Shown: positions 1 to 18,005, counted from the stretch's first letter. The stretch is 64,000 nt of DNA from Escherichia coli (GCF_001677475.2 NZ_CP015229.1); one strand, 5' to 3'. Numbers and translations: made by a program. The notes: generated by a model from the sequence alone, not told the origin.

Positions 1-257
1 ATAGCATCAAAATAGCTGTAAACTCCATATGGAGAGTAAATCATTCTGGAAGTGAGTATAAATCCATTTACTGTGGTAAGAATATCATATAAGTCCTGAG
101 TTCTGTGTAGCTTATACACATTAATCAACTCCGGTCGTGGGTAAGCATCATATCTTAATGCACCATGCGCTGAGATAATATTCCTGTAATTTTGTATATT
201 ATATATAATCTGAGTACGTAGAAGAAAACTGTGCCACAATTCATTTTCATATATCAT
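1..257 (-). CDS. Hypothetical protein, N-terminal 85 codons only (continues past window start); first gene downstream of tnsD, candidate cargo or extra targeting gene
   Basis: ATG at 257 preceded by GAGG 5 nt upstream; frame stays open to position 1 (MIYENELWHSFLLRTQIIYNIQNYRN...); AT-rich; no recognisable similarity. Confidence 0.35.
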   Translation of the reverse strand, partial: MIYENELWHSFLLRTQIIYNIQNYRNIISAHGALRYDAYPRPELINVYKLHRTQDLYDILTTVNGFILTSRMIYSPYGVYSYFDA

Positions 258-272
258 ATCAACCTCATTCAA

Positions 273-1826
273 CTACTTAGATTTACTCATATTAATCAAA
301 GCCATAGTAACTGGAAGCTTATCTCTGTTTTTTAATAACCAGCCATGTCCCCCCAGTACAGAATCAAGTCTTGACAGTGACAGTGAGCACTGCCCCTGAG
401 CTAAAAAATTTTTTATTAATGATAATGAAAACTTATCCCTTTCATCCCAATTGACCCTTTTAACATTACAGCGCCGTGATTCCTTTGGTAAATAAAAATC
501 AAGCCATTGGCTTTCAAATCTGTTTAGCCAGAAAAAACTTGCATAACAATTCGCCCTGACTACTTTTCGAGTCACAGGACCAGTGAGGCCATGCATGAAC
601 CGCAGGATTTTTTGTTTATGACGTCGTCTTAAAGAGTCTCTTTTACATTTTTTACGCCATGAACATAATCCATAAAATGAAGAAATCACCGATGAAACAC
701 TCCCTTCCGATAAGGAGTTTTTCTTTGCTATTGATGCTAAACTAAACCCTCTCACAGCCATGGATTTAATAAGGAACTCAGTTAATATGTTTATTTTAAT
801 GCTACACTTATAATTCTTTACATACTTTTTATGGATTACTCCTTTAATAAAACATCTACTCTTGTTAAGTTCCTTAGCAAGAGAATTAATACTGTTATGT
901 TTTTCACTCAGGAGGCAAAACTGGGCTGTATCATCATCAAAAGCGATGCTCTTTGATTTTTTATGGATATCGGCATGTACTGGCCATGTTATTCTTAACA
1001 AACAATAGCACAGTAACAGATGCTTTGTTGGATGCTGGCATGATTGATTCCTGAGTAAAGGCTCCCAGTAGTGATAATCCGAAATGGATTCAGGCAAAAT
1101 TGCTGAAGAACCCGAATCTAATAACCTACATTTCGCATAAACATGTGAATAAAAAACCCCTTTTTTTATATTTCCTGATACTGATAATAAATTAAGTTGT
1201 TTCAGTATATCCATGTAATCAGGATGATTTGCATCTCCCCTTCGGATCATATTTATAAATTCGTAGCAAAATTTAGCAAAATCGAATTCAAACTCAGTAC
1301 TCAGATGTTCAATATATGAAACCGGGGGCATCAGCCCTTTGCGAATATGTGGCGAAGGAGGAACACAGATGCTTTCAAGTAATATCTGATGTCGATAGCA
1401 GGTCGTAATCCCCCGAAGTTGATGAAGAAGATGCCAGTATGTAACACCATGATGGTACGCATCTTCACGTGCACAAACCGGACAAAATTTTAAAACAGTC
1501 TGTAGCCCGGAGGAGAAATTACTAAGACGGCACAACCGATTTAGTCTGCCCGGTGTCGTTCTCAAATCCATAATTTCTTTGCGGCTGGATGGCAGGGCCC
1601 AGGAAAAAAGAGGGAGCAATGTCTGTTCATACAAGAGTTGCTCTGCACTCTCTGACGTATGAAGAGAAATATCGTTTAATCCGGAACTGAGTATTGGGTG
1701 TACGCTAACATCAGATTTTCCAAAAAGGATTTGTAACATGGTAGAAGGAGACATACCATACACAGTAACTGACCGACATATACGGCTAAACAAGGTTTCA
1801 TCAGGTAAAACAGGAAGTAGAATCAT
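273..1826 (-). CDS. tnsD: Tn7-like target-site selector TnsD/TniQ
   Basis: N-terminus aligns with Tn7 TnsD; CxxC...C..H zinc-finger-like segment (FCPVCAREDAYHHGVTYWH...CYRH). ATG at 1826 has a GAGGTGGG RBS; the ORF-track start at 1844 is a TTG. Confidence 0.8.
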   Translation of the reverse strand: MILLPVLPDETLFSRICRSVTVYGMSPSTMLQILFGKSDVSVHPILSSGLNDISLHTSESAEQLLYEQTLLPLFSWALPSSRKEIMDLRTTPGRLNRLCRLSNFSSGLQTVLKFCPVCAREDAYHHGVTYWHLLHQLRGITTCYRHQILLESICVPPSPHIRKGLMPPVSYIEHLSTEFEFDFAKFCYEFINMIRRGDANHPDYMDILKQLNLLSVSGNIKKGVFYSHVYAKCRLLDSGSSAILPESISDYHYWEPLLRNQSCQHPTKHLLLCYCLLRITWPVHADIHKKSKSIAFDDDTAQFCLLSEKHNSINSLAKELNKSRCFIKGVIHKKYVKNYKCSIKINILTEFLIKSMAVRGFSLASIAKKNSLSEGSVSSVISSFYGLCSWRKKCKRDSLRRRHKQKILRFMHGLTGPVTRKVVRANCYASFFWLNRFESQWLDFYLPKESRRCNVKRVNWDERDKFSLSLIKNFLAQGQCSLSLSRLDSVLGGHGWLLKNRDKLPVTMALINMSKSK

Positions 1827-1868
1827 TCGCCCACCTCTCAGCAACCACTCTGAACAATAAATTCAGTA

Positions 1869-3314
1869 TTACAATTCATTAAGTGGGTCTGTATTTAACA
1901 GACCGCAACGCTGAAGCGATGAGTAGGTTTCGTTGTTATCAGCAGCCCTGCTGATAATACGCTCCCGATCGAAAGATATGATTTTACTTTCGAAATTTTG
2001 CATAGCCTCATCAATTTTTTGTGCAAATTCTTTATGCTGTGGCCTGTCAATATCTCCAGGAATCAGAGCCTTCGCGTGCCTGTCGGCAGTAAAATCCGTT
2101 GAGGCTTCGCCTGCATGAGATACAGAGCAATATTTATCATCATACTCACCCACAGCTCCAGGTATCAAAGCCTCCTGATACTCCTCCGTATGACTGGCGA
2201 GCACCGGTACAGAAGACGACAACACTACACTACTGATCAGTTCATTGCCGCTTCCAATAACTTTTAATTGTGCCCTGCGATAAATCATCTGAGCCAGTCC
2301 GATGTTACCTTTAGATAAAACGAAAAGTTTTTCATTAAGCTCATCACTTAACGGAGTTTCAATATTTGTCCATTGTAATGGCCATAAATAATGAATAAAC
2401 GACTGCCAGTCCTGTGAGTCATACCTGACATTGAGAATATTCATATAACCACCCGATTCCGCTCGTCTGGCAATACGCATTTTTCTGGCCAGTGTTTCAT
2501 CAAAAGGGGGGTTTCCACAAAAAACCATTGATACACCCATTGAATCTACAATTTCATGAAGAAAATCAATGAGTTTATTTTCACCGCCCGTTCTGGAAAA
2601 TTTCAGCCGCTGCATTTCATCAATAACAAGAATACCCAAAAACGATGATTTAATTCTCTGCGCTATCTGCCTCGCCAGAGGACCATTCCTGATCTCTGAT
2701 GTAGTTCGTTCGATGCCGCTAGCATCATCTAACTTTAGAAGAATTTCTTCGCAAAGGTCTCTGACACTGGAGTTGTACGGACAATTAATCTTTAACCACA
2801 CGATTTGCTTGCTTAGCCCGGGAAAAGCACCTTTATAACTACTGTGCTCAATGACCTGGGGAAAGTAGTCCATAATTTGCTCAATCATGGTGGTTTTTCC
2901 GGAGCCACTCATCCCGACTATCGTAATAGTTTCAGCCTGAGACTTAAAATACCCGCTATCTGGCTCTATGTCAGGTCGCTCGTTACCATAGTAATGCAGG
3001 TACTGAACAGTACCACTTTTTAAAGGATTTCGGGCAGCATAACTTTCCCTCAAAGCCCGGTAAATCATTCTGTAAGCTTCGATAAGATTCGTTTGTGGAC
3101 ATCGAAATTTCTTTATCCGATCGACATACTGCTCCCTGATTTTAGCAGGAGCAGTCCAGCGAATATCTTCGTCAATTTCAGGAAAGTAACTCATTTCAAA
3201 AAACACTTCATCATCGGAAAGCGCTTCAGGAAGTGCCTCAATTAAGGGATTGCCCCGATATTCAGGCAAGCCCGGCTCTTTATAAATTGCTGAGACGCTC
3301 CGTAACATATTCAT
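1869..3314 (-). CDS. tnsC: Tn7-like transposition regulator TnsC (AAA+ ATPase)
   Basis: Walker A GMSGSGKTT; blocks matching Tn7 TnsC (YRGNPLIEALPE; LGILVIDEMQRL..SRTGG); ATGA overlap with tnsB stop. Confidence 0.9.
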   Translation of the reverse strand: MNMLRSVSAIYKEPGLPEYRGNPLIEALPEALSDDEVFFEMSYFPEIDEDIRWTAPAKIREQYVDRIKKFRCPQTNLIEAYRMIYRALRESYAARNPLKSGTVQYLHYYGNERPDIEPDSGYFKSQAETITIVGMSGSGKTTMIEQIMDYFPQVIEHSSYKGAFPGLSKQIVWLKINCPYNSSVRDLCEEILLKLDDASGIERTTSEIRNGPLARQIAQRIKSSFLGILVIDEMQRLKFSRTGGENKLIDFLHEIVDSMGVSMVFCGNPPFDETLARKMRIARRAESGGYMNILNVRYDSQDWQSFIHYLWPLQWTNIETPLSDELNEKLFVLSKGNIGLAQMIYRRAQLKVIGSGNELISSVVLSSSVPVLASHTEEYQEALIPGAVGEYDDKYCSVSHAGEASTDFTADRHAKALIPGDIDRPQHKEFAQKIDEAMQNFESKIISFDRERIISRAADNNETYSSLQRCGLLNTDPLNEL

Positions 3315-5437
3315 TTTTCTGCGTCCTCTTGTTTTTTCTTAGCGTTTAACCATCGCTGTTTTTCTTCACGGCCAGGCAAAAGCAGAATATTACTGGATGA
3401 AGGAAGTACAGGTTCATTTTTTTCATTAGGCAGATTTGTACGCCCTAATAGGTCCAGTTCAGCTTTTCTGTTCCGCCTGATATCTTTACCATGCACCCGG
3501 CGGGGATCAGAAATATCGTTCAGGCGTTCAATACCTTGCCTGTTGATTTTATCCTTAACTTTACTATTGTTAAAAACATTCAGTGTGAATGCATTTATTT
3601 CTTTTTGCGTATCTACCCAGTCGGCCATAACATCTGTATCAAGATGAGCTTTACCTTTAAATACATCTCTTTTTTTGAGTAGATAATGCTTTCTGAAGAC
3701 ACTATTTTTATCGAATCTTACGTACAAATAATCTACGCAATTATCATCAATTCTTGCTTCACAGGAGGTTCGTCCGAATACTCTTGCTGCTGAAGCAATG
3801 TCAGGATCGCATTCATAAAATAAATTATTATACTGAATTCCACCGGCTGTAATATTTGCTGTCACGGGGATTAACAAACGAGCAATGACTTCATCTGCTG
3901 TAACGACTCTTCCGCTGAACCGTCCTTGCTTTACGCTAATCATCCAGCTGTTTTTTGGCGAAATAATGAGATCATGTTCAATCAACAATGGATTAATATA
4001 AGCCAACTCCTCATACGTTCTTTGATTATGTGCAAGGATTTCCCGAATCAGCACTGAGGTGACCTCCTGAATCGTTAAACAGGCTCTGGATTGCGGTGTT
4101 GGTTCTCCTTTAACAATTTTGCCTCTTCGCGTTGCTCCTGTAAGCTCATGAATAGCTTCATCATTTAAAATCCCGAAACAACGCTCAACAATACTCTTTC
4201 TGTCCCCTCTGCCAACCGGTGCAAACTCAAGTTTAGTCAGAGGAGTCATCTTATCTTGAGGTTTAAGACCAATCATCTCTCCATTATCGCACATAAGTGT
4301 TAATGGTATATGAGAACAAGGCCATTCATCTTCATTAATAGAAACACCAAATATTCTACAGTATTCTTTTTTTGGCATAAAGCAATTTGCCAACGCTTGC
4401 CGGGCCGCTCGCCAGGAAGCATGATACAAAGAAACATGAAGACCAACAATCATCCTTGAAGCACGATCCACTACTGTATAAATAGTTGGTCGGCCAATAA
4501 CTTTACGCCTGTTTAAGCTTGAAACAAGGTGCACATCAGCTACAGTTGAGTCTATTTCAAAAACATCACCCGGCAATACGGTCGTATTAGCGGCACTCCC
4601 CAGAAGGCCACGCATCTTGAGGGCTATTTCTTTTTTAGAGTTTTTCTTATTTATAGAGAACTCTTTTGAAAACAACTTTCTATTCCAGTAAGTAAATTGT
4701 TTTAAAGAAGGAATGTAGGGAGCCCTGTTTTCAGCGTTTGCTTTCTTTATTTCATCCTTGAAATATAATTCAATGTGTCTTACCAGCGTTTTCTTTATCG
4801 TTTCCCCATGAGTTTTGTAATGAAACCTAGTTAGGGACTTTTTGATGTTTTCAATATCCCCTTCATTAAGGATATAAACTTTCGAACGTATATTGGGTAA
4901 TACTCTGTTTTTCTTTGCATTCCCGAGCTTAACTTCATGTCTGATTCTACTCTTACCTGCAGCACCGCAGTTCGGGTATGCGGGTAGCAAAGCATATATA
5001 TCCTGTCCATGTTTCCAGTAAAGAGTTAGAAGCGTCCTGATTGTACGTTGTGGGATTTGTTTTTTTCTGGAGTACTCTGTTAACAAATGTGATTTTTTAT
5101 GAATCGCATAATCAAATACGAATATTTTATCCTCTACAAGTTCTTTAATAATCTTATAGTTTACATCCCGTCGCTTTCTGTCTTCATTATTTATTTTTCT
5201 CTCATCAATCAACATATATGATGGGGGTGTATATTTCTTATGGGTTATTCTTTGCGAGTCCACACCATATGTAAATTGTGAAAGTGAGAATGGAATTGGT
5301 TTACTCGTTCTTTCTTTTTTTATTTCAAATAAAATCAACAAATCGGTATCTCTGTCAAAATCCAGAACGCGATAAAGCCCATCAGATAGCACGTCACTGT
5401 CGTGAGATTGCCATACTGAATTTCTAATAATATCCAT
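3311..5437 (-). CDS. tnsB: Tn7-like transposase TnsB (DDE/RNase H-fold)
   Basis: 708 aa; core similar to Tn7 TnsB (IGRPTIYTVVDRASRMIVG vs IGRPTLYIVIDVFSRMITG); overlaps tnsA 3' end by 14 nt. Confidence 0.9.
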   Translation of the reverse strand: MDIIRNSVWQSHDSDVLSDGLYRVLDFDRDTDLLILFEIKKERTSKPIPFSLSQFTYGVDSQRITHKKYTPPSYMLIDERKINNEDRKRRDVNYKIIKELVEDKIFVFDYAIHKKSHLLTEYSRKKQIPQRTIRTLLTLYWKHGQDIYALLPAYPNCGAAGKSRIRHEVKLGNAKKNRVLPNIRSKVYILNEGDIENIKKSLTRFHYKTHGETIKKTLVRHIELYFKDEIKKANAENRAPYIPSLKQFTYWNRKLFSKEFSINKKNSKKEIALKMRGLLGSAANTTVLPGDVFEIDSTVADVHLVSSLNRRKVIGRPTIYTVVDRASRMIVGLHVSLYHASWRAARQALANCFMPKKEYCRIFGVSINEDEWPCSHIPLTLMCDNGEMIGLKPQDKMTPLTKLEFAPVGRGDRKSIVERCFGILNDEAIHELTGATRRGKIVKGEPTPQSRACLTIQEVTSVLIREILAHNQRTYEELAYINPLLIEHDLIISPKNSWMISVKQGRFSGRVVTADEVIARLLIPVTANITAGGIQYNNLFYECDPDIASAARVFGRTSCEARIDDNCVDYLYVRFDKNSVFRKHYLLKKRDVFKGKAHLDTDVMADWVDTQKEINAFTLNVFNNSKVKDKINRQGIERLNDISDPRRVHGKDIRRNRKAELDLLGRTNLPNEKNEPVLPSSSNILLLPGREEKQRWLNAKKKQEDAEK

Positions 5438-6266
5438 TTGCGTTCAGCCCTATGCAGTAACCATTGGAAATTATTTTTATCAGACCTGTTTCGAGAATTG
5501 GATAAGATAGATCCACATTTATCATTTTTAACCCAATAATTGCCTGCAATAACATGATTGCTTCTTGTTCATCGACATCAAAGATTGATGAGATCATCGC
5601 GCGTAGTTCCACAATCGGATAAACATCCGGCTTAAGCCTCCATAAAATTTTATCAAGCGGATATTTATCAAAAAACTCAGACCCATTTCTCAGCACCGAG
5701 GTAGCCCAACATATGTTCTGCCCCGTGACATGATTCAGTTCCGAACCAGTATAGATTTGGAACTCAACATCAATCAGTTGCCAAAACATTCTCTCTATCT
5801 CAAGCTTTTCTGCTTCGCGTTTAGGTATGCTTTCGTTTTGCTTTACTGCAATTGCTTTATACCGAAGCCCCCCTCCCGGCATTCTCAGGGTCAGCAAGAA
5901 ATCAGTTGTCATAACATTCAGGACATCGGCTGGTACGCCTCTGACTCCCCTGACAAGCGGGTGCTGCACATCTAAGTGATTGGCTATCTGATGGGTGAGC
6001 AGTAGAGGTATGAGTGGGAATTGTTCGCGGATATCGATCACCAAGTCATTAAACTCAGCCAAGTAGAAAAAGTTACTTTCGACAGAAGAAAAGAAATGGT
6101 GATTCCGAAACGTCTTAAGGCCAAAGACTATCGAACGGTTTCCATGGGATCTAACGTCCTGAGCTCTAAGCCAGGGTTGATAACTTTGCCCATAGCCCAA
6201 CCCTATGCCGTCACCTAGCGCATTTTCATAATCCTGATAGGATTTAAGACGCCTGCCCCTAGCCAT
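5424..6266 (-). CDS. tnsA: Tn7-like transposase subunit TnsA (endonuclease-like)
   Basis: Matches Tn7 TnsA (YQPWLRAQDV...IDIREQFPLIP; KLEIERMFWQ). ATG at 6266 gives the same N-terminal length as Tn7 TnsA; the ORF-track start at 6278 is a GTG. Confidence 0.9.
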   Translation of the reverse strand: MARGRRLKSYQDYENALGDGIGLGYGQSYQPWLRAQDVRSHGNRSIVFGLKTFRNHHFFSSVESNFFYLAEFNDLVIDIREQFPLIPLLLTHQIANHLDVQHPLVRGVRGVPADVLNVMTTDFLLTLRMPGGGLRYKAIAVKQNESIPKREAEKLEIERMFWQLIDVEFQIYTGSELNHVTGQNICWATSVLRNGSEFFDKYPLDKILWRLKPDVYPIVELRAMISSIFDVDEQEAIMLLQAIIGLKMINVDLSYPILETGLIKIISNGYCIGLNANGYY

Positions 6267-6278
6267 GATCGTACCCAC

Positions 6279-6405
6279 AAAACATCATTGATACGTACCT
6301 GCATGAGTGTTTAATAGTCTACAACCCTATAACCACACATATAGTAAGTATACAACATTAGCGTCATTTTTTGAGAGTGGTTACAACTTTAGTGCTTAGG
6401 GCACA
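6279..6405 (-). repeat. Transposon right end: array of imperfect ~20-30 bp direct repeats carrying GTTGT(A) cores (putative TnsB-binding sites), terminus TGT at 6405 or 6385
   Basis: Minus-strand reading from the yhiN stop: AAAGTTGTGCC..AAAGTTGTAACC..AATGTTGTATAC..GGGTTGTAGAC..TTTTGTGGG; analogous to the Tn7-R site organisation. Confidence 0.55.
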
Positions 6406-6408
6406 ACT

Positions 6409-7611
6409 TTATTGTTTTTGAACAGCAATCAAATCCTGCGCACAAGCCCACGCACTCGACCACGCCCACTGGAAATTATAGCCCCCCAGCCAACCGGTGA
6501 CGTCCATCACTTCGCCGATGAAGTACAGCCCAGGCACTTTGCGCGCTTCCATCGTCCGTGAAGAGAGTTCGTTGGTGTCCACGCCGCCGAGCGTCACTTC
6601 GGCAGTGCGATAGCCTTCAGTGCCGTTGGGTTGTACGCGCCAGTCGGTCAATGTGCTAATCAGTGCCTGTTGGTCACGCACGTTGAGCTGTTTTAGCGAG
6701 ACATCCGGGATTTGCCCGAGTTGTTGTAAACGTTCAACCAACCGCTTCGGTAGATGAACCGCCAGTGTGTTTTTCAGGCTCTGATTCGGATGTGCATTAC
6801 GCTGCTCATTCAGGAAGGTTTCGAGGTCCACATCAGGTAGCAGATTGATACTGACAAATTCACCCGGTTGCCAGTAGCTGGAAATTTGCAACACCGCCGG
6901 TCCAGATAAACCGCGGTGGGTGAAGAGTAAGTTCTCACGGAAAACGGTGCCGTTTTCAGCGGTAATCACGGAAGGCACCGCCACGCCCGCCAGCACCTGT
7001 AACTCTTCGAGCAACGGTTTATGCAGAGTGAATGGCACCAGGCCCGCGCGGGTCGGCAGCACGTTGAGGCCAAATTGTTCGGCAATCTTATAACCAAACG
7101 GCGACGCGCCCAGCCCTGGCATTGACAGTCCACCGGTCGCGATGACCAGCTTTTCGCAACCGACAGTCATGCCGTTCAGTTCAAGCGTGAAGCCTGTTTC
7201 ATCCTTCGCCACACTCAGCACTTCGCTACGCAATCTGAAGGTCACATTGCCCTTCTCGCACTCATCCACCAGCATGTCGACAATCTGCTGCGCGGAGTCA
7301 TCGCAGAAGAGTTGTCCTAACGTTTTCTCGTGCCAGGCGATGCCGTGTTTATTGACCAGATCAATGAAATCCCACTGGGTAAAACGCGCGAGTGCAGATT
7401 TACAAAAATGCGGATTCTGGCTCAGATAAGCGCCCGGTTCGACATAAAGGTTGGTAAAGTTGCAGCGCCCACCGCCAGACATGAGGATTTTGCGCCCTGG
7501 TTTTTTACCATTATCGATCAGCAGAACCCGGCGTCCTGCCTGACCTGCCAGCGCAGAACAGAACATACCCGCCGCACCAGCGCCTATAATAATGGCATCA
7601 AACCTTTCCAC
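6409..7611 (-). CDS. yhiN: NAD(FAD)-utilising dehydrogenase YhiN (flavoprotein, HI0933 family)
   Basis: 400 aa, MERFDAIIIGAGAAG... dinucleotide-binding motif; GTG start with GGAG RBS. Confidence 0.9.
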   Translation of the reverse strand: MERFDAIIIGAGAAGMFCSALAGQAGRRVLLIDNGKKPGRKILMSGGGRCNFTNLYVEPGAYLSQNPHFCKSALARFTQWDFIDLVNKHGIAWHEKTLGQLFCDDSAQQIVDMLVDECEKGNVTFRLRSEVLSVAKDETGFTLELNGMTVGCEKLVIATGGLSMPGLGASPFGYKIAEQFGLNVLPTRAGLVPFTLHKPLLEELQVLAGVAVPSVITAENGTVFRENLLFTHRGLSGPAVLQISSYWQPGEFVSINLLPDVDLETFLNEQRNAHPNQSLKNTLAVHLPKRLVERLQQLGQIPDVSLKQLNVRDQQALISTLTDWRVQPNGTEGYRTAEVTLGGVDTNELSSRTMEARKVPGLYFIGEVMDVTGWLGGYNFQWAWSSAWACAQDLIAVQKQ

Positions 7612-7842
7612 GTTGCGCTCCTCTAAGAAAAAACGGGCGTGAATTGTAAAGATTCCTCAGTGGTCGCACCAGCATCAATATTACTAAAAGGAAGTATTTG
7701 CCTGAATTATATAAGATAATTATTTTTTGAGTGAAATCCATACAGGAGGCAAATCAAAAAAAGTCTATATTTCACTTTGCCCGCGCCGCGAAAGTCACTG
7801 ATAATGCGCCGCGTTCATGTCCTCAAAATGGCGTAACGTCCT

Positions 7843-9342
7843 ATGCTACATTTGTTTGCTGGCCTGGATTTGCATACCGGGCTGTTATTATTGCTTGCAC
7901 TGGCTTTTGTGCTGTTCTACGAAGCCATCAATGGTTTCCATGACACAGCCAACGCCGTGGCAACCGTTATCTATACCCGCGCGATGCGTTCTCAGCTCGC
8001 CGTGGTTATGGCGGCGGTGTTCAACTTTTTGGGTGTTTTGCTGGGTGGTCTGAGTGTTGCCTATGCCATTGTGCATATGCTGCCGACGGATCTGCTGCTT
8101 AATATGGGATCGTCTCATGGCCTTGCCATGGTGTTCTCTATGTTGCTGGCGGCGATTATCTGGAACCTGGGTACCTGGTACTTTGGTTTACCTGCATCCA
8201 GCTCTCATACGCTGATTGGCGCGATCATCGGGATTGGTTTAACCAATGCGTTGATGACCGGGACGTCAGTGGTGGATGCACTCAATATCCCGAAAGTATT
8301 AAGTATTTTCGGTTCTCTGATCGTTTCCCCTATTGTCGGCCTGGTGTTTGCTGGCGGTCTGATTTTCTTGCTGCGTCGCTACTGGAGCGGCACCAAGAAA
8401 CGCGCCCGTATCCACCTGACCCCAGCGGAGCGTGAAAAGAAAGACGGCAAGAAAAAGCCGCCGTTCTGGACGCGTATTGCGCTGATCCTTTCCGCTATCG
8501 GCGTGGCGTTTTCGCACGGCGCAAACGATGGTCAGAAAGGCATTGGTCTGGTTATGTTGGTATTGATTGGCGTCGCACCAGCAGGCTTCGTGGTGAACAT
8601 GAATGCCACTGGCTACGAAATCACCCGTACCCGTGATGCCATCAACAACGTGGAAGCTTACTTTGAGCAGCACCCTGCGCTGCTGAAACAGGCTACCGGT
8701 GCTGATCAGTTAGTACCGGCTCCGGAAGCTGGCGCAACGCAACCTGCGGAGTTCCATTGCCATCCGTCGAATACCATTAACGCGCTCAACCGCCTGAAAG
8801 GCATGTTGACTACCGATGTGGAAAGCTACGACAAGCTGTCGCTTGATCAACGTAGCCAGATGCGCCGCATTATGCTGTGCGTTTCTGACACTATCGACAA
8901 AGTGGTGAAGATGCCTGGCGTGAGTGCAGACGATCAGCGCCTGTTGAAGAAACTGAAGTCCGACATGCTTAGCACCATCGAGTATGCGCCGGTGTGGATC
9001 ATCATGGCGGTCGCGCTGGCGTTAGGTATCGGTACGATGATTGGCTGGCGTCGTGTGGCAACGACTATCGGTGAGAAAATCGGTAAGAAAGGCATGACCT
9101 ACGCTCAGGGGATGTCTGCCCAGATGACGGCGGCAGTGTCCATCGGCCTGGCGAGTTATACCGGGATGCCGGTTTCCACCACTCACGTACTCTCCTCTTC
9201 TGTCGCGGGGACGATGGTGGTAGATGGCGGCGGCTTACAGCGTAAAACCGTGACCAGTATTCTGATGGCCTGGGTGTTTACCCTTCCGGCTGCGGTACTG
9301 CTTTCCGGCGGGCTGTACTGGCTCTCCTTGCAGTTCCTGTAA
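7843..9342 (+). CDS. pitA: Low-affinity inorganic phosphate transporter PitA
   Basis: 499 aa, [18 protein letters not shown]..., PiT family. Confidence 0.95.
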
Positions 9343-9358
9343 TCGTACGCACCAAAAC

Positions 9359-9388
9359 AGCGGGTCAGTTTACTGGCCCGCTTTTTTT
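9359..9388 (+). terminator. Rho-independent terminator after pitA
   Basis: GC stem GCGGGTCAG-TTTA-CTGGCCCGC followed by T7. Confidence 0.55.
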
Positions 9389-9411
9389 ATGCGTCATTAT
9401 TGCTGAAGTGC

Positions 9412-9747
9412 TTAATGCCAAATCATCAATGCAATCAGGCTGATCACCACCAGACCACACAATGCGCTGGTCAGAATAAACTGCCGACGCACCCGCTCAC
9501 AGCGGCGAATAAACTCATCATCGTGATGATCGCGATAACGTTGGGCATAGATATACCAAACGAGACGCACCTGTTTGTTGGGTTGGCCATGTGAGGTAAA
9601 AAAGCCCCCTCCATCAACATATTGATAGAGCAATGGATCGCAGTTACGCAGTACCACTAACAACGCGCGTAGTGATGAGAAATAGCGCGCCATGTTAACA
9701 ATGCAAACGACACATAAAGCCCAAAATAATGCGACGGTGCTTATCAT
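9412..9747 (-). CDS. uspB: Universal stress protein B
   Basis: 111 aa membrane protein, [14 protein letters not shown]...; GGAGGA RBS. Confidence 0.95.
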
Positions 9748-10137
9748 ACCTCCTCCCCGGCGACCTGCCCGCGGAGTTCCACCCCGGGGCTACCGCTCCC
9801 GATACGCTGCCAATCAGTTAACACCAGGTCCTGGAGAAACCGCTTTTGTGGTGACCAACATCCGAGCGGCTCTATAGATAGTGTAGGAGATCAGGTTGTT
9901 TTTTTTCCAGAAGGTTAACCACTATCAATATATTCATGTCGAAAATTTGTTTATCTAACGAGTAAGCAAGGCGGATTGACGGATCATCCGGGTCGCTATA
10001 AGGTAAGGATGGTCTTAACACTGAATCTTTACGGCTGGGTTAGCCCCGCGCACGTAGTTCGCAGGACGCGGGTGACGTAACGGCACAAGAAACGCTAGCT
10101 GGCCAGTCATCGACAACTTTATGGAAGGAGTAACACT

Positions 10138-10572
10138 ATGGCTTATAAACACATTCTCATCGCGGTCGACCTCTCCCCGGAAAGCAAAGTTCTGGTAGAG
10201 AAAGCAGTCTCTATGGCTCGCCCCTACAATGCGAAAGTTTCTCTGATCCACGTAGATGTAAACTACTCTGACCTATACACCGGGCTTATTGATGTGAATC
10301 TGGGTGATATGCAGAAACGCATCTCTGAAGAGACACATCATGCGCTGACCGAGCTTTCCACTAATGCAGGCTACCCAATCACTGAAACCCTGAGCGGCAG
10401 CGGCGACCTGGGCCAGGTTCTGGTCGATGCAATCAAGAAATACGATATGGATTTGGTGGTTTGTGGTCACCACCAGGACTTCTGGAGCAAACTGATGTCT
10501 TCCGCACGTCAGCTGATCAACACCGTTCACGTTGATATGCTGATTGTTCCGCTGCGCGACGAAGAAGAATAA
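10138..10572 (+). CDS. uspA: Universal stress protein A
   Basis: 144 aa, [19 protein letters not shown]...; GGAAGGAG RBS. Confidence 0.95.
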
Positions 10573-10598
10573 TCTTCCCTCTACGACGTGTTCCTGAA

Positions 10599-10627
10599 CG
10601 CCCGCATATGCGGGCGTTTTGCTTTTT
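10599..10627 (+). terminator. Rho-independent terminator after uspA
   Basis: CGCCCGCATATGCGGGCG hairpin followed by a T-rich tract. Confidence 0.55.
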
Positions 10628-10887
10628 GGCGCGCCTTGTTACCTTGCAGCGTAAACACCTTATCTGGCCTACGGTCTGCGTACGCAATCAAAATCCCCTG
10701 CCAATACAACATTTAACACCATCATATTTTCCATCATTAGTGTGATCAGCTGGTTATTTTCTGTTGTAATAGTGTATTAATCTATTCACCGCATCAATAT
10801 TAAGAATCTCTGACAGATGTAAACTTTTTCGCGCGTTATCCCTTACGCGTTCATACTTTTCAGGATGGTATTGGAAGGTTAATAAAT

Positions 10888-12357
10888 ATGAATACAACAA
10901 CACCCATGGGGATGCTGCAGCAACCTCGCCCATTTTTCATGATCTTTTTTGTCGAGTTATGGGAGCGATTCGGCTACTACGGCGTGCAGGGCGTACTGGC
11001 GGTTTTCTTCGTTAAGCAGCTTGGATTCTCGCAAGAACAGGCTTTTGTCACTTTTGGTGCTTTTGCTGCGCTGGTCTATGGCCTCATTTCCATTGGCGGC
11101 TATGTCGGCGACCACCTGCTGGGGACCAAACGCACCATTGTCCTCGGAGCACTTGTGCTGGCGATTGGCTACTTCATGACCGGTCTGTCGCTACTTAAGC
11201 CTGACCTGATTTTCATCGCCCTGGGGACTATCGCTGTCGGTAACGGCCTGTTTAAAGCTAACCCAGCCAGCTTGCTTTCGAAGTGCTATCCGCCGAAAGA
11301 TCCACGGCTTGATGGCGCATTTACCCTGTTCTATATGTCGATCAACATCGGCTCGTTGATAGCGTTATCGCTGGCCCCTGTGATCGCTGATAGATTCGGC
11401 TATTCAGTCACCTACAACCTGTGCGGTGCGGGATTAATTATCGCGCTATTGGTTTACATCGCCTGTCGCGGAATGGTGAAAGACATTGGTTCTGAACCCG
11501 ACTTCCGGCCGATGAGCTTCAGCAAACTGTTGTACGTGTTACTTGGCAGCGTGGTGATGATCTTCGTCTGTGCATGGCTGATGCACAACGTAGAAGTCGC
11601 CAATCTGGTGCTGATTGTTCTCTCCATCGTCGTCACCATCATCTTCTTTCGTCAGGCATTCAAGCTGGATAAAACCGGGCGCAATAAAATGTTTGTCGCC
11701 TTTGTCCTGATGCTCGAAGCGGTGGTGTTTTACATTCTCTACGCCCAGATGCCAACGTCGCTGAACTTCTTTGCCATCAACAACGTGCATCATGAAATTC
11801 TCGGCTTTTCCATCAACCCGGTCAGCTTCCAGGCGCTTAACCCGTTCTGGGTAGTACTCGCCAGCCCAGTACTGGCAGGCATTTACACGCATCTGGGTAA
11901 CAAAGGCAAAGACCTCTCTATGCCGATGAAATTTACTCTCGGCATGTTTATGTGCTCGCTGGGCTTTCTTACAGCCGCCGCTGCGGGAATGTGGTTTGCG
12001 GATGCCCAGGGGCTGACATCGCCGTGGTTTATTGTGCTGGTTTACTTATTCCAGAGCCTGGGTGAACTGTTTATTAGCGCCCTTGGCCTGGCGATGATTG
12101 CTGCCCTGGTGCCGCAGCATTTGATGGGCTTTATTCTCGGGATGTGGTTCCTGACGCAGGCTGCCGCGTTCTTGCTGGGCGGCTATGTGGCAACATTTAC
12201 CGCAGTACCAGACAACATTACCGATCCGCTTGAGACGTTGCCCGTCTATACCAACGTGTTTGGTAAGATTGGCCTGGTTACGCTGGGCGTTGCGGTGGTG
12301 ATGCTGCTGATGGTGCCGTGGCTGAAACGAATGATTGCGACGCCCGAAAGCCATTAA
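10888..12357 (+). CDS. dtpB: Dipeptide/tripeptide:H+ symporter DtpB (POT family)
   Basis: 489 aa; ERFGYYG POT signature near the N-terminus. Confidence 0.95.
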
Positions 12358-12371
12358 TTATTCTTGCAGAA

Positions 12372-12400
12372 AGCAGGGTAGCGATAACGCTACCCTGCTT
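12372..12400. terminator. Hairpin between convergent dtpB and rsmJ (likely bidirectional terminator)
   Basis: AAGCAGGGTAGCG-ATAA-CGCTACCCTGCTT palindrome, T-rich on the + side. Confidence 0.5.
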
Positions 12401-12405
12401 TACTT

Positions 12406-13158
12406 TTACACCGGCGTTCCGGCATAAATATCAAAGCGATGCCCTTTGGTCACTACCGCGTTTGGCGTGGCGACATTCGCCAGCGGCGGCGCGTAGTCCG
12501 GGCGCTTTACCACCACGCGTTTGGTCGCCAGCAAGCGTGCAGGCTCCAGTAATCCATCGGCATCAAGATCCGGCCCCACCAGCGACTGAAAGACACGCAT
12601 CTCTTTTTTCACCAGCGCGCTTTTCTGCTTATGCGGGAACATCGGATCGAGATAGACCACCTGCGGGCGCGGAGTAATATCGGTTAGCGCCGTCAGGCTG
12701 GAAGCGTGAATTAACTGCAACCGCTCCTGCAACCAGCCGCCGATTTCCGCATCCGCATAACCACGCGCCAGGCCGTCGTCGAGCAATGCAGCAACCACCG
12801 GATTACGCTCCAGCATCCGCACGCGGCAGCCGACCGAAGCCAGCACAAAGGCATCGCGCCCCAGCCCTGCGGTGGCATCGACGACATCCGGCAAATAATC
12901 GCCTTTAATGCCCACCGCTTTTGCCACCGCCTCACCGCGACCACCGCCGAATTTGCGTCGGTGCGCCATCGCTCCGCCAACAAAATCAACAAAGATGCCA
13001 CCAAGTTTTGGCTCATCACGCTTGCGCAGTTCCAGATGCTCCGGTGTTAACACCAGCGCCATCAGGTTGTCTTCATCATGTTCCAGCCCCCAGCGAGCCG
13101 CCAGAACAGATAAGGCACCGTCTCCGGTGCCTGTTTCATCAATTAAGCAGATTTTCAC
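12406..13158 (-). CDS. rsmJ: 16S rRNA m2G1516 methyltransferase RsmJ
   Basis: 250 aa from GTG ([14 protein letters not shown]...); starts 8 nt after the prlC stop. Confidence 0.9.
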
Positions 13159-13165
13159 TGAATGA

Positions 13166-15208
13166 TCAGCCCTTAATGCCGTAATGCTCCAGCATCGCAT
13201 CCAGTTGCGGTTCACGACCACGGAAGCGTTTGAACAGATCCATCGGCTCTTCTGAACCACCACGGCTCAGAATGTTGTCGAGGAACGACTGTCCAGTATC
13301 ACGGTTGAAAATGCCCTCTTCCTCAAAGCGCGAGAAGGCATCTGCCGCCAGCACGTCGGCCCACAGGTAGCTGTAGTAACCTGCGGCATAACCACCGGCG
13401 AAAATATGGCTGAAAGCGTGCGGGAAGCGGCCCCAGGATGGAGACGGTACTACGGCAACCAGTTTCTTGATTTCTGCCAGGGTTTCGAGGATTTTCGCCC
13501 CCTGATCCGGGCGGAACTCGGCATGGAGGCGGAAATCGAACAGGCCGAACTCCAGCTGGCGCAGAATAAACAGCGCCGCCTGGTAGTTCTTCGCTGCCAG
13601 CATTTTATCCAGCAGCTCTTTCGGCAGCGGTTCGCCGGTTTCATAGTGACCGGAGATAAACGCCAGCGCCTCCGGCTCCCAGCACCAGTTTTCCATAAAC
13701 TGACTCGGCAGTTCGACCGCATCCCACGGCACCCCGCTGATACCAGACACACCAGCGGTTTCAATGCGGGTCAGCATATGATGCAGGCCGTGACCGAACT
13801 CATGGAACAGAGTGATCACCTCGTCGTGAGTGAACAGCGCCGGTTTACCATTCACCGGGCGGTTGAAGTTACAGGTCAGATACGCGACCGGTTTTTGCAG
13901 CGAACCGTCGGCTTTACGCATCTGGCCTACGCAGTCATCCATCCACGCCCCGCCGCGCTTGTTTTCACGGGCATACAGGTCGAGGTAGAAGCTGCCGCGC
14001 AGTTCGTTGTTCTCGTCATACAGTTCGAAGAAACGTACATCCGGATGCCAGACATCAACATCTTTACGCTCTTTAGCGGTGATGCCGTAAATACGTTTCA
14101 CCACTTCAAACAAGCCGTTAACCGCTTTGTTTTCCGGGAAGTACGGACGCAGTTGTTCGTCACTGATGCTGTAGAGGTGCTGTTTTTGTTTTTCGCTGTA
14201 GTACGCGATATCCCACGGCTGCAACTCATCCACGCCAAATTCGGCTTTAGCGAAGGCACGCAGTTGCGCCAGCTCTTTTTCACCTTGCGGACGCGCGCGT
14301 TTTGCCAGATCGGTTAAGAAATCCAGCACCTGCTGCGGATTTTCTGCCATTTTAGTGGCAAGGGATTTAAAGGCGTAGTTTTCAAAGCCCAGCAGTTGCG
14401 CCAGTTCGTGACGCAGCGCGAGGATCTCTTCCATCACCTTGCTGTTGTCCCACTTACCGGCGTTCGGACCTTGATCGGAGGCGCGGGTGCTGTAAGCGCG
14501 ATACATCTCTTCGCGCAGAGCCTGGTTGTCGCAGTAGGTCATTACCGGCAGGTAGCTTGGGATATCCAGCGTCAGCAGGTAGCCTTCAAGTTCTTTCGCT
14601 TCAGCCTGGGCTTTTGCCGCAGCCAGCGCGCTTTCTGGCATCCCCGCCAGTTCCGCTTCGTCGGTAACGAGTTTGGTCCAGCCCATTGTCGCATCGAGGA
14701 CGTTGTTGCTGTACTGGTTGCCCAGCTCGGAAAGACGAGTGGCAATCTCACCGTAACGCTGCTGTTTCTCTTTCGGCAGACCGATGCCAGAGAGTTCAAA
14801 GTCGCGCAGTGCGTTATCAACCGCTTTCTTCTGCGCCGTGTTCAGCGTGGCGTAATGATCGCCATCGCGCAGGTCGCGATACGCTTTATACAGCCCTTCA
14901 TGTTGCCCTACCCAGGTGCTGTATTCCGACAGCAGCGGCAGGGTTTGTTCGTAGGCTTCACGCAGTTCCGGGCTATTTTTCACCGAGTTCAGGTGGCTGA
15001 CCGGGGAGAAGATACGCCCCAGCACATCGTCCACTTCCGCCAGCGGCTGGCAGAGATTTTCCCAGGTGTACGGTGCTCCTTGCGCTACTACGCGCTCCAC
15101 ATTTTCGCGGCAGTCGTTCAGCGCCTTAGTCACGGCTGGAACGACATGTTCCGGGAGAATTTTAGAAAACGGAGGCAATTCAAAGGGAGTCAGTAACGGA
15201 TTCGTCAT
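13166..15208 (-). CDS. prlC: Oligopeptidase A (M3 family Zn metallopeptidase)
   Basis: 680 aa from [17 protein letters not shown]; HEFGH zinc motif present. Confidence 0.95.
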
Positions 15209-15410
15209 TAGCGCAGTCCTGGTTAAAGAGGTTAAGGAAGCGCTCAACAGGCGCTTTACATAATGTGTGTAGCATGGGGTTAAGTGTAGTGAATTTCAAT
15301 GAGAAACGTTACGCTTTCGCGGCGGCGGCCTCTTTTCGGTATACTGTCCTGATAGGCTTTTGTGCGCCCCGAATACGGGCCGATTTTTACTTACCGGAAC
15401 ACCTTTACCC

Positions 15411-16253
15411 ATGCTCAGTTATCGCCACAGCTTTCACGCTGGCAACCACGCCGACGTCCTTAAACATACCGTTCAGAGCCTGATCATCGAGTCGCTGAAA
15501 GAGAAAGATAAACCGTTTCTCTATCTCGATACCCACGCAGGGGCCGGGCGTTATCAGTTAGGCAGCGAACATGCCGAGCGTACCGGCGAATATCTCGAAG
15601 GTATCGCCCGTATCTGGCAGCAGGACGATTTGCCTGCGGAGCTGGAGGCGTACATCAATGTGGTAAAACACTTCAACCGTAGCGGTCAGTTGCGTTACTA
15701 CCCCGGTTCACCGTTGATTGCCCGTCAGTTACTGCGTGAACAGGACAGCCTGCAACTGACCGAACTGCACCCGAGCGATTACCCGTTGCTACGTTCTGAA
15801 TTTCAGAAAGACAGCCGTGCGCGCGTCGAAAAATCCGACGGTTTCCAGCAGCTTAAGGCCAAACTGCCGCCGGTTTCCCGCCGTGGTTTAATACTTATCG
15901 ACCCGCCGTATGAAATGAAAACCGACTATCAGGCGGTGGTCAGCGGGATAGCAGAAGGCTATAAACGTTTCGCCACTGGCACTTACGCACTGTGGTATCC
16001 GGTGGTTCTGCGCCAGCAAATTAAGCGCATGATCCACGACCTGGAAGCGACCGGCATTCGCAAAATTCTGCAAATTGAACTGGCGGTACTGCCAGACAGC
16101 GATCGCCGTGGCATGACCGCTTCCGGCATGATTGTGATTAATCCGCCGTGGAAGCTGGAACAGCAGATGAATAACGTGCTGCCGTGGCTGCACAGCAAAC
16201 TGGTTCCGGCTGGTACCGGGCACGCCACCGTAAGCTGGATCGTGCCGGAGTAA
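15411..16253 (+). CDS. rlmJ: 23S rRNA m6A2030 methyltransferase RlmJ
   Basis: 280 aa from MLSYRHSFHAGNHADVLKH. Confidence 0.9.
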   Translation: MLSYRHSFHAGNHADVLKHTVQSLIIESLKEKDKPFLYLDTHAGAGRYQLGSEHAERTGEYLEGIARIWQQDDLPAELEAYINVVKHFNRSGQLRYYPGSPLIARQLLREQDSLQLTELHPSDYPLLRSEFQKDSRARVEKSDGFQQLKAKLPPVSRRGLILIDPPYEMKTDYQAVVSGIAEGYKRFATGTYALWYPVVLRQQIKRMIHDLEATGIRKILQIELAVLPDSDRRGMTASGMIVINPPWKLEQQMNNVLPWLHSKLVPAGTGHATVSWIVPE

Positions 16254-16324
16254 TTGCAGCCATTGCTGGCACCTATTACGTCTCGCGCTACAATCGCGGT
16301 AATCAACGATAAGGACACTCTGTC

Positions 16325-17677
16325 ATGACTAAACACTATGATTACATCGCCATCGGCGGCGGCAGCGGCGGTATCGCCTCCATCAACCGCGCGGCTATGT
16401 ACGGCCAGAAATGTGCGCTGATTGAAGCCAAAGAACTGGGCGGCACCTGCGTGAACGTCGGCTGCGTACCGAAGAAAGTGATGTGGCACGCGGCGCAAAT
16501 CCGTGAAGCGATCCACATGTACGGTCCGGATTATGGTTTCGATACCACTATCAATAAATTCAACTGGGAAACGTTGATCGCCAGCCGTACCGCCTATATC
16601 GACCGTATTCATACTTCCTATGAAAACGTGCTCGGTAAAAATAACGTTGATGTAATCAAAGGCTTTGCCCGCTTCGTTGATGCCAAAACGCTGGAAGTTA
16701 ACGGTGAAACCATCACGGCCGATCATATTCTGATCGCCACCGGCGGTCGTCCGAGCCACCCGGATATTCCAGGCGTGGAATACGGTATTGATTCTGATGG
16801 CTTCTTCGCCCTTCCTGCTTTGCCAGAGCGCGTAGCAGTTGTTGGCGCGGGTTACATCGCCGTTGAACTGGCGGGCGTGATTAACGGCCTCGGCGCGAAA
16901 ACGCATCTGTTTGTGCGTAAACATGCGCCGCTGCGCAGCTTCGACCCGATGATCTCTGAAACGCTGGTCGAAGTGATGAACGCCGAAGGCCCACAGTTAC
17001 ATACCAACGCCATCCCGAAAGCGGTAGTGAAAAATGCCGATGGCAGCCTGACGCTGGAGCTGGAAGATGGTCGCAGTGAAACGGTGGATTGCCTGATTTG
17101 GGCGATTGGTCGCGAGCCTGCCAATGACAACATCAACCTGGAAGCCGCTGGCGTTAAAACTAACGAAAAAGGCTATATCGTCGTCGATAAATATCAAAAT
17201 ACCAACGTTGAAGGTATCTACGCGGTGGGCGATAACACGGGGGCAGTGGAACTGACACCGGTAGCAGTTGCAGCGGGTCGCCGTCTCTCTGAACGCCTGT
17301 TTAATAACAAGCCGGATGAGCATCTGGATTACAGCAACATTCCGACCGTGGTCTTCAGCCATCCGCCGATTGGGACTGTTGGTTTAACGGAACCGCAGGC
17401 GCGCGAGCAGTACGGCGACGATCAGGTGAAAGTGTATAAATCCTCTTTCACCGCGATGTATACCGCAGTCACCACTCACCGCCAGCCGTGCCGCATGAAA
17501 CTGGTATGCGTTGGACCGGAAGAGAAGATTGTCGGAATTCACGGCATTGGTTTTGGTATGGATGAAATGTTGCAGGGCTTCGCGGTGGCGCTGAAGATGG
17601 GGGCGACCAAAAAAGACTTCGACAATACCGTCGCCATTCACCCGACGGCGGCAGAAGAGTTCGTGACCATGCGTTAA
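16325..17677 (+). CDS. gor: Glutathione reductase
   Basis: 450 aa; GGGSGG FAD motif; redox-active [13 protein letters not shown]. Confidence 0.95.
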
Positions 17678-17683
17678 ATGTTA

Positions 17684-17714
17684 AAGGGCTAAGAGTAGTG
17701 TGCTCTTAGCCCTT
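17684..17714. terminator. Hairpin after gor (shared terminator with the convergent dinQ transcript)
   Basis: AAGGGCTAAGAG...CTCTTAGCCCTT inverted repeat. Confidence 0.4.
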
Positions 17715-17730
17715 AATTACGTTTCCGCTA

Positions 17731-17814
17731 TCAGTTCAGAAGCTGAAGCAGAAAGCGGATCAGTTCCAGCAGCGCAATTAACGCCCCAAGAACGATGATT
17801 GCTTTATCAATCAC
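17731..17814 (-). CDS. dinQ: DinQ, 27-aa membrane toxin peptide (type I toxin-antitoxin)
   Basis: Minus-strand ORF GTG-IDKAIIVLGALIALLELIRFLLQLLN-TGA matches the recalled DinQ peptide; below the ORF-track size cutoff. Confidence 0.75.
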   Translation of the reverse strand: MIDKAIIVLGALIALLELIRFLLQLLN

Positions 17815-18005
17815 CCGTTTTCTCCATGCGATGGAGTGAGAATGCATCCGCTTACTCATCCACTGCCTGTCACGGCGCATGTCTCATTGTTAGATAAGAA
17901 CTCTCTCACTCCGGCCAGAGCATCAGTTAACGGCACCACCCGTACTTCTGACCAGGACTTTGAAAGCGTTTATGCGCATTACCAGAGTGAAAATGCCTCA
18001 GAGCT

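Follow-up and report, generated by a model that had tools for sequence, protein, structure and literature searches.

How a Tn7-like transposon engages its TnsA endonuclease when its AAA+ regulator, TnsC, is shorter than that of Tn7 is the question raised by a locus of Escherichia coli. The element carries tnsA, tnsB, tnsC and tnsD on the minus strand near the start of a 64,000-nucleotide (nt) stretch of DNA (GCF_001677475.2, NZ_CP015229.1), which is called the window below. A first-pass annotation, made from the sequence, had drawn attention to overlaps between tnsA and tnsB and between tnsB and tnsC, and had proposed from the shortened TnsC that the element may use a different TnsA-TnsC interface. 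Our comparisons lead to another view. We judge it likely that the window holds an intact core operon, tnsA-tnsB-tnsC-tnsD, of the Tn6230 family at yhiN, in which the overlaps are ancestral and the TnsA-binding tail of TnsC has been kept.

A compact TnsC that is normal for its family

The window TnsC has 481 amino acids (aa), 74 fewer than the 555-aa TnsC of Tn7 (R721 copy). Residues 7-393 align with Tn7 residues 6-402 at 31% identity, and since the N-terminal and AAA+ parts align, the length difference falls in the C-terminal extension. The annotation's account of a 481-aa protein, against about 555 aa in Tn7, that resembles Tn7 TnsC in its N-terminal and central parts was confirmed by this alignment.

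Searched against 5.8 billion proteins, the window TnsC had 374 homologues. Among the best 120 of these 374, nearly all are 470-490 aa long, and coverage of the query remains 99% down to 41% identity. We also collected 62 related loci from species-representative genomes, with start codons placed by homology; 31 of them make up the family of the window element, and their TnsC proteins have 471-487 aa. The window protein has the compact form that is usual in this family and is not truncated. To call it shortened is correct relative to Tn7, by 74 aa, but the shortening is not unusual, as 470-490 aa is the family norm.

Conservation, measured as the mean fraction of sequences carrying the majority residue, divides the protein into distinct blocks (Table 1). 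Behind the AAA+ core lies a linker of variable length; about 80% of homologues have gaps at its residues 394-401. Segment 420-437 then reaches a conservation of 0.71, on par with the AAA+ core, and includes the motif GD(I/L)(T/S)(R/K)P(Q/H)HPEF at residues 420-430, of which D421, H427 and E429 are invariant and F430 nearly so. Profile alignment with hhalign found no significant Tn7 counterpart of residues 420-430. Among 1.84 billion representative proteins, this motif was found only in TnsC proteins of about 480 aa.

A candidate TnsA-binding peptide at the end of TnsC

The C-terminal ends of three groups of TnsC proteins can be compared directly. The terminal pattern is TMHERLKGKGVIVDMASLF in Tn7, SAYEGLKSxGIIKDPVxDF in cyanobacteria and DPxxYLRxxGxLCDDPLxEL in the family of the window element, whose own sequence is TYSSLQRCGLLNTDPLNEL. 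When profiles of the last 62 residues were aligned with hhalign, the window family matched the cyanobacterial tails with P=7.3e-5 (probability 62%) and the Tn7-clade tails with P=4.1e-4 (probability 35%), and the control comparison of cyanobacterial with Tn7-clade tails gave P=1.4e-6 (probability 90%). All three alignments fall in one register, defined by L-(K/R)-x-x-G-hydrophobic-hydrophobic. Shuffling the columns of the query profile 200 times gave null scores of 9 +/- 2, the highest being 18.2, and none of these 200 permutations reached the observed scores of 24.5 and 20.4. The signal is weak but consistent, and suggests that the terminal ~35 residues have a real but distant homology to the TnsA-binding peptide. 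Alignment of full-length TnsC profiles yielded a collinear extension only and is uninformative for the tail.

Both partners of the proposed contact were examined. TnsA matches PF08722 (expectation value E=8.9e-15) and the Tn7 TnsA structure (1T0F/1F1Z, E=8e-30), and its catalytic residues E63/D122/K142 align with E63/D114/K132 of Tn7. Its C-terminal domain has no sequence similarity to Tn7 TnsA. The predicted fold nevertheless matches 1t0f_A over 250 columns of 264 residues with a template modelling (TM) score of 0.68, and therefore both TnsA domains are retained as judged by predicted fold. In Tn7, the TnsC tail markedly raises the thermal shift of TnsA.

To model the pair, TnsA was fused through a 30-residue GS linker to TnsC(405-481) and folded with AlphaFold2 using 27 TnsA/TnsC pairs, each taken from the same locus. 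The model has a mean predicted local distance difference test (pLDDT) score of 82.8 and a predicted TM (pTM) score of 0.81. The linker stays below a pLDDT of 40, the tail (residues 415-481) ranges over 77-94, and the motif at 420-430 has the highest tail value (94). For N=387 and d0 of ~7.1 Å, pTM could reach a ceiling of only ~0.72-0.74 if TnsA 4-272 alone were placed confidently, so the value of 0.81 would require that the tail be positioned with confidence relative to TnsA. In a tail-only control (pTM 0.39) a single long helix spans tail residues 24-55. In the fusion this helix is split in three and L473 of the G-L-L motif forms a beta-bridge, neither of which appears in the tail-only model. 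These features are suggestive only, and point to a tail that packs on TnsA in the tethered model.

Several observations weigh against a retained TnsA-binding tail. TnsC proteins of the Tn7 clade carry PF11426 (Tn7_TnsC_Int), and this domain was unmatched even at E<=10 in the window tail and in four family tails. In control searches the Tn7 tail matched at 2.3e-12, and three cyanobacterial tails failed as well. The TnsC tail of AvCAST, a CRISPR-associated transposon (CAST), binds TnsA through residues 513-556 as in Tn7 (PMC13251919). Because cyanobacterial tails of the AvCAST type are also missed, PF11426 is too narrow to decide on a TnsA-binding tail, and its absence should not be taken as absence of such a tail. 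The homology itself is weak, with hhalign probabilities of 35-62%, and when longer tails were compared (114 versus 182 residues), the best alignment was unchanged but reached only P=0.0045 and a probability of 8%. A HMMER profile of the 77-residue tail, searched against the same 1.84 billion representatives, produced 51 matches, none of which bridges to a Tn7-type TnsC; all are family members of ~471-500 aa or fragments. On the structural side, the tail-only model also has a fairly high pLDDT (78, against 77-94 in the fusion), so that docking cannot be told from pLDDT alone, and 1T0F lies within AlphaFold's training data. Finally, the residues A65, S69 and E73, at which gain-of-function changes occur in Tn7 TnsA, are N, L and N in the window TnsA.

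The most serious alternative draws on some of the same facts. It holds that the TnsC C-terminus in this family does not contact TnsA, which would be held directly by TnsB, as reported for type I-F CASTs, and that the conserved tail motifs serve another partner such as TnsB, DNA or the second TniQ protein. If so, TnsA and TnsC would be related in a truly different way, as the annotation had proposed. Such an arrangement would fit the missing PF11426, a tail profile that retrieves no Tn7-type protein, and the fact that the most conserved tail element, GDITRPQHPEF, is without a Tn7 counterpart. It also has precedent: according to reviews, many Tn7-like elements have a TnsC without the TnsA-binding domain (PMC11406308), and PseCAST is reported to have a TnsC whose C-tail is not conserved and which TnsA and TnsB do not need in order to communicate (PMC13174479). 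We nonetheless regard it as unlikely, because the terminal segment matches the profiles of two clades with demonstrated TnsA binding, in one register and beyond all 200 permutations, because the pTM of the fusion demands confident packing of the modelled tail against TnsA, and because the two-domain fold of TnsA is kept.

As for the annotation's idea that TnsA and TnsC meet at a different interface, the unmatched PF11426 is the only point in its favor, and the terminal motif shared, in profile alignments, with the cyanobacterial and Tn7 tails speaks against it. Full conservation of the C-terminal region, which the annotation had named as the outcome that would contradict its proposal, holds to a degree: conservation extends to the motif and to where it lies, but not to the sequence.

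The shortfall in TnsC and the recruitment of TnsB

The functional map of Tn7 TnsC (Shen et al. preprint) assigns residues 1-406 to the ring, 426-503 to a TnsB-binding domain with motifs at 451-494, 495-509 to a basic patch and 504-555 to TnsA binding. The window TnsC aligns up to about Tn7 residue 402 (EYDD393 versus RYSD402), and again from ~440-447, which corresponds to Tn7 512-515. Between these points are ~45-55 window residues where Tn7 has ~110, and therefore the shortfall falls on the region of the TnsB-binding domain. The missing ~74 residues thus map to the flexible Tn7 ~403-511 region that holds this domain, not to the TnsA-binding end. A search for the domain itself by hhalign, using Tn7 426-503 against the window family, returned nothing beyond a spurious alignment (P=0.035). 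As the cyanobacterial control failed likewise (P=0.43), the length argument stands alone.

The TnsB proteins of family loci end in a short hydrophobic-basic, hook-like motif, for example VISLLKRKK and YLPRRR, with ILLLPGREEKQRWL in the window (3314-3400). Cyanobacterial Tn7-like TnsB proteins end alike, in LDLLKRKR. In CASTs, TnsB hooks bind the AAA+ body of TnsC (PMC13228271). By analogy, the end of TnsB in this family may be a TnsC-binding hook, which we offer as a lead and not as a result.

Taken together, these comparisons suggest how the protein could work. As the alignment shows, TnsC begins with a Tn7-like N-terminal region for interaction with TnsD and an AAA+ ring module. A variable linker follows, then the invariant motif with its helix, and then the ~35-residue probable counterpart of the TnsA-binding peptide, as the faint but consistent profile match and the tethered model suggest. 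Given such a counterpart, TnsA is probably still recruited and activated as in Tn7, through the C-terminus of TnsC. Little of the flexible Tn7 403-511 region is present, and TnsB is probably recruited differently, speculatively by a basic C-terminal hook that binds the TnsC AAA+ body as in CASTs. A different TnsA-TnsC interface is less likely than a kept TnsA-binding peptide combined with a missing TnsB-binding domain.

A more specific version of this scheme is possible, although we hold it tentatively and think it somewhat doubtful. It describes a compact two-part tail for transposase recruitment, made of an invariant D-x5-H-x-E-F motif particular to the ~480-aa family (GDITRPQHPEF) and the ancestral TnsA-binding peptide, with the TnsB-binding domain absent. 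If true, the Tn6230 family would be intermediate between Tn7, with its long tail and TnsC-dependent TnsA activation, and the type I-F3 CASTs, which have no tail, and its mechanism of TnsA/TnsB activation would be one not yet described.

For work on Tn7 and CASTs the value of these findings is modest. The tail map names ~35 residues as a candidate TnsA-binding peptide, marks the motif with the invariant residues D421, H427 and E429, and leaves no room in the window TnsC for the TnsB-binding domain of Tn7. The feature as such is ordinary and already known, and it matters little for discovery.

Overlapping genes and translational coupling

The two overlaps reported by the annotation, 14 nt between tnsA and tnsB and an ATGA shared by tnsB and tnsC, can be read directly in the sequence (Table 1). 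In Tn7 (R721 copy) tnsA and tnsB likewise overlap by 14 nt (ATGTGGCAAATTAA) and tnsB and tnsC by a 4-nt ATGA. Among the 31 family loci, 14 have a tnsA/tnsB overlap of 14 nt and 13 have one of 11 nt. Of the tnsB/tnsC junctions in these loci approximately 30 are intact, and none of these separates the two genes by more than 22 nt; 12 loci have a 4-nt overlap, and the other intact junctions show overlaps of 1-17 nt or gaps of 2-22 nt. The genes tnsC and tnsD never overlap, being 8-165 nt apart in the family loci and 42 nt apart in the window. Both overlaps, the 14-nt and the 4-nt one, belong to the inherited Tn7 layout and are not peculiar to this element, and because they are kept in relatives they go beyond chance.

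With such overlaps, TnsA, TnsB and TnsC are most likely made from a single transcript in a coordinated manner, by coupled translation. The coupling is plausible and its layout conserved, but it would be an inherited trait. What the annotation said about coupling stands insofar as the overlaps are real and would fit it. Its additional claim of stoichiometric co-expression was an over-reading, since the solved strand-transfer complex of a Tn7-like element contains two TnsA, five TnsB and a TnsC heptamer (PMC13251919).

It might be argued that the overlaps only reflect which start codons were chosen and have no regulatory meaning. An alternative in-frame ATG at 3308, two codons into tnsC, would abolish the 4-nt overlap and leave a 2-nt gap to tnsB, and small tnsB/tnsC gaps do occur in 11 family loci. 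Moreover, 4-nt overlaps are the commonest type in bacterial operons. We consider this explanation very improbable, however, because 27 of the 31 loci, and Tn7 too, keep tnsA and tnsB overlapping by 11 or 14 nt, because a Shine-Dalgarno sequence (GAGGA) located 9 nt upstream of the overlapping tnsC ATG has a spacing that favors this start, and because the RefSeq starts are identical. The arrangement of tnsB and tnsC is tight whichever tnsC start is used. Annotation artefacts were rejected as the source of the overlaps, which are conserved across family loci.

Genes and proteins of the core operon

The coordinates of all features are collected in Table 1. For the core genes they are identical to the RefSeq coordinates in a 99.6% identical genome (L001).

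Table 1. Features of the Tn7-like element in the window; cons., conservation as defined in the text.
Feature	Position	Strand	Description
tnsA	5424..6266	minus	ATG start; 280 aa; endonuclease subunit of transposase
tnsB	3311..5437	minus	708 aa; DDE transposase
tnsC	1869..3314	minus	481 aa; AAA+ regulator
tnsD	273..1826	minus	517 aa; target selector, TniQ + TnsD domains
Second short TniQ-like gene, 3' part	1..257	minus	Cut by window start; RefSeq coding sequence (CDS) at L001 19331-20257
TnsC 121-367			AAA+ core; cons. 0.75
TnsC 368-419	2058..2213	minus	Variable-length linker after AAA+ module; cons. 0.32
TnsC 420-430	2025..2057	minus	Motif GD(I/L)(T/S)(R/K)P(Q/H)HPEF, here GDIDRPQHKEF
TnsC 447-481	1872..1976	minus	Candidate TnsA-binding peptide, TYSSLQRCGLLNTDPLNEL; cons. 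0.50
tnsA/tnsB overlap	5424..5437	minus	14 nt, ATGGATATTATTAG; tnsB ATG at 5437, tnsA TAG ends at 5424
tnsB/tnsC overlap	3311..3314	minus	ATGA; tnsB TGA (3313..3311) inside, ATG starts tnsC
Transposon right end	6300..6424	minus	Terminal TGT at 6424; aligned with K-12 site and O104:H4 element
DGTTGTR repeats (four)	6320, 6351, 6382, 6402	minus	Same strand; spacing 31, 31, 20 nt
Target-site duplication, right copy	6425..6429	minus	ATTGC, 5 bp; inside yhiN CDS; GATTTG-ATTGC-TGTTC

TnsB residues 8-659 match the Tn7 TnsB structure 7PIK (E=1.4e-46), and D296/D384/E418 align with Tn7 D273/D361/E396. The Pfam integrase core model (rve) did not reach E<=0.01 on the window TnsB. TnsC has the Pfam domains AAA_22 and TniB, its residues 7-367 match Tn7 6-373 in the structures 7MBW/8GLU (E=4e-39), and the Walker B residues D232/E233 are conserved relative to Tn7. 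TnsD matches PF06527 (E=2.4e-20) and PF15978 (E=7.1e-17). An NCBIfam scan of the four Tns proteins gave no informative match, with no model for any of them. The RefSeq product names are ‘ATP-binding protein’ for TnsC and ‘transposase’ for TnsB.

Directly after tnsD lies a gene for a 308-aa protein, which is conserved in the window lineage and in the O104:H4 lineage. Its match to TniQ is weak (E=8.4e-5; 23.7 bits, under the 27-bit cut-off), and the gene may encode a second target selector that replaces TnsE. A simple promoter and terminator scan of 1700-6500 returned counts equal to those of shuffled sequence. It found no minus-strand promoter for tnsA in the right end (6320-6408), and no tnsA promoter could be named.

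Identity, site and distribution of the element

Upstream of the operon are yhiN (HI0933-like) and then pitA, uspB and uspA, neighbors that place the window in the E. coli chromosome. Relative to the empty K-12 site, homology breaks 16 nt short of the yhiN stop codon, within the gene. The terminal bases of the element (in 6409-6429) supply yhiN with four new codons and a stop, leaving YhiN at 400 aa; the protein ends in DLIAAKSS* in K-12, in DLIAVQKQ* here and in VRGQ* in O104:H4. The termini are TGT...ACA and are flanked by the 5-base-pair (bp) ATTGC duplication, as seen at the right end in the window and at the left end in L001, the only genome in which that end was seen (CTACACA-ATTGC-AGCGAAGTCGTCCTGA). 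The four DGTTGTR repeats of the right end are likely to be TnsB-binding sites, a putative assignment from their sequence.

The Tn7-like hallmarks are all present: TnsA E/D/K, TnsB DDE, TnsC AAA+ and a TniQ/TnsD selector. The Tn6230 family targets yhiN and is listed as ‘molecular details unknown’ (PMC11406308), and yhiN-yhiM is hotspot #3 of E. coli (PMC10121019). On the basis of its attachment site and of homologues in Shewanella, Vibrio and Enterobacteriaceae, the element is assigned to the Tn6230 family of Tn7-like transposons. Earlier work has documented the element, where it attaches and how its genes are arranged, and RefSeq already contains identical proteins.

When at least 80% of the query had to be covered, 673 of 5426 complete E. 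coli genomes (~12%) were found to carry such an element. Most of the 673 belong to the 82%-identical lineage of O104:H4 that carries sil/pco. The window lineage is rarer, with six genomes at 99.6% identity among the matches listed. In L001, which is 99.6% identical over window positions 1-7700, the element is ~22.5 kb long, and its cargo (5400-17900) comprises a tib adhesin/invasin locus (tibA, a heptosyltransferase, regulators), tyrosine recombinase/invertase genes and insertion sequence copies. This cargo lies outside the window and comes from a different genome from that of the window.

The sil/pco lineage moved from plasmid pMG101 to yhiN-yhiM in laboratory stocks (PMC8417528). The O104:H4 copy has a TnsC of 482 aa, and since a lineage with this TnsC has transposed, systems with the short form of TnsC are functional. 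The idea that the short TnsC is a decaying gene of a dead element, to which its 74-aa deficit relative to Tn7 might point, is hardly credible in view of that transposition, of more than 100 homologues of 470-490 aa that align over 99% down to 41% identity, of the conserved tail motifs and of catalytic and ATPase residues that are all intact; a truncated gene or pseudogene was ruled out by the family comparison.

Comparison with known systems

The closest relatives are the other members of the Tn6230 family, including the sil/pco island of O104:H4 and pMG101, with which the window element shares the yhiN-yhiM site and the tnsABCD order. The O104:H4 element is 82% identical at the DNA level, has a TnsC of almost the same length (482 versus 481 aa) and carries the same short TniQ-like gene downstream. 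Their cargo differs, as O104:H4 carries sil/pco whereas L001, nearly identical to the window, carries tib instead.

Tn7 itself has the same 14-nt tnsA/tnsB and ATGA tnsB/tnsC overlaps, and its TnsA, TnsB and TnsC are homologous to those of the window in their catalytic and AAA+ parts (31-38% identity). The TGT termini and the 5-bp duplication are also shared, as is, in the profile alignment, the C-terminal L-K/R-x-x-G-hydrophobic-hydrophobic motif. However, the window TnsC is without most of the region ~403-511 and does not match PF11426, and tnsC and tnsD are 42 nt apart. Tn7 inserts at glmS (attTn7), whereas the window element is inserted at yhiN, inside the 3' end of the coding region, and where Tn7 has TnsE the window element has a second TniQ-like gene after tnsD. 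The element therefore falls outside Tn7 sensu stricto, which is defined by attTn7 at glmS together with TnsE.

In AvCAST (type I-B1) and cyanobacterial Tn7-like elements TnsA is a separate protein, as it is here, and the cyanobacterial tail Y-E-x-L-K-S-x-G-I-I-K-D-P-V-x-D-F aligns with Y-S-S-L-Q-R-C-G-L-L-N-T-D-P-L-N-E-L of the window. Cyanobacterial TnsC proteins are longer, at ~560 aa against 481 aa, and an extended region precedes their tail. The cyanobacterial tnsA and tnsB genes do not overlap (gaps of ~20 nt), unlike those of the window, and the window element is without a CRISPR module.

The TnsC proteins of type I-F3 CASTs (VchTnsC and PseTnsC, ~330 aa) are distantly related to the window protein in the AAA+ core (E=3.5e-5), and both kinds are shorter than Tn7 TnsC. 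Type I-F TnsC is without a conserved C-tail, whereas the window TnsC keeps a 114-residue extension with conserved motifs.

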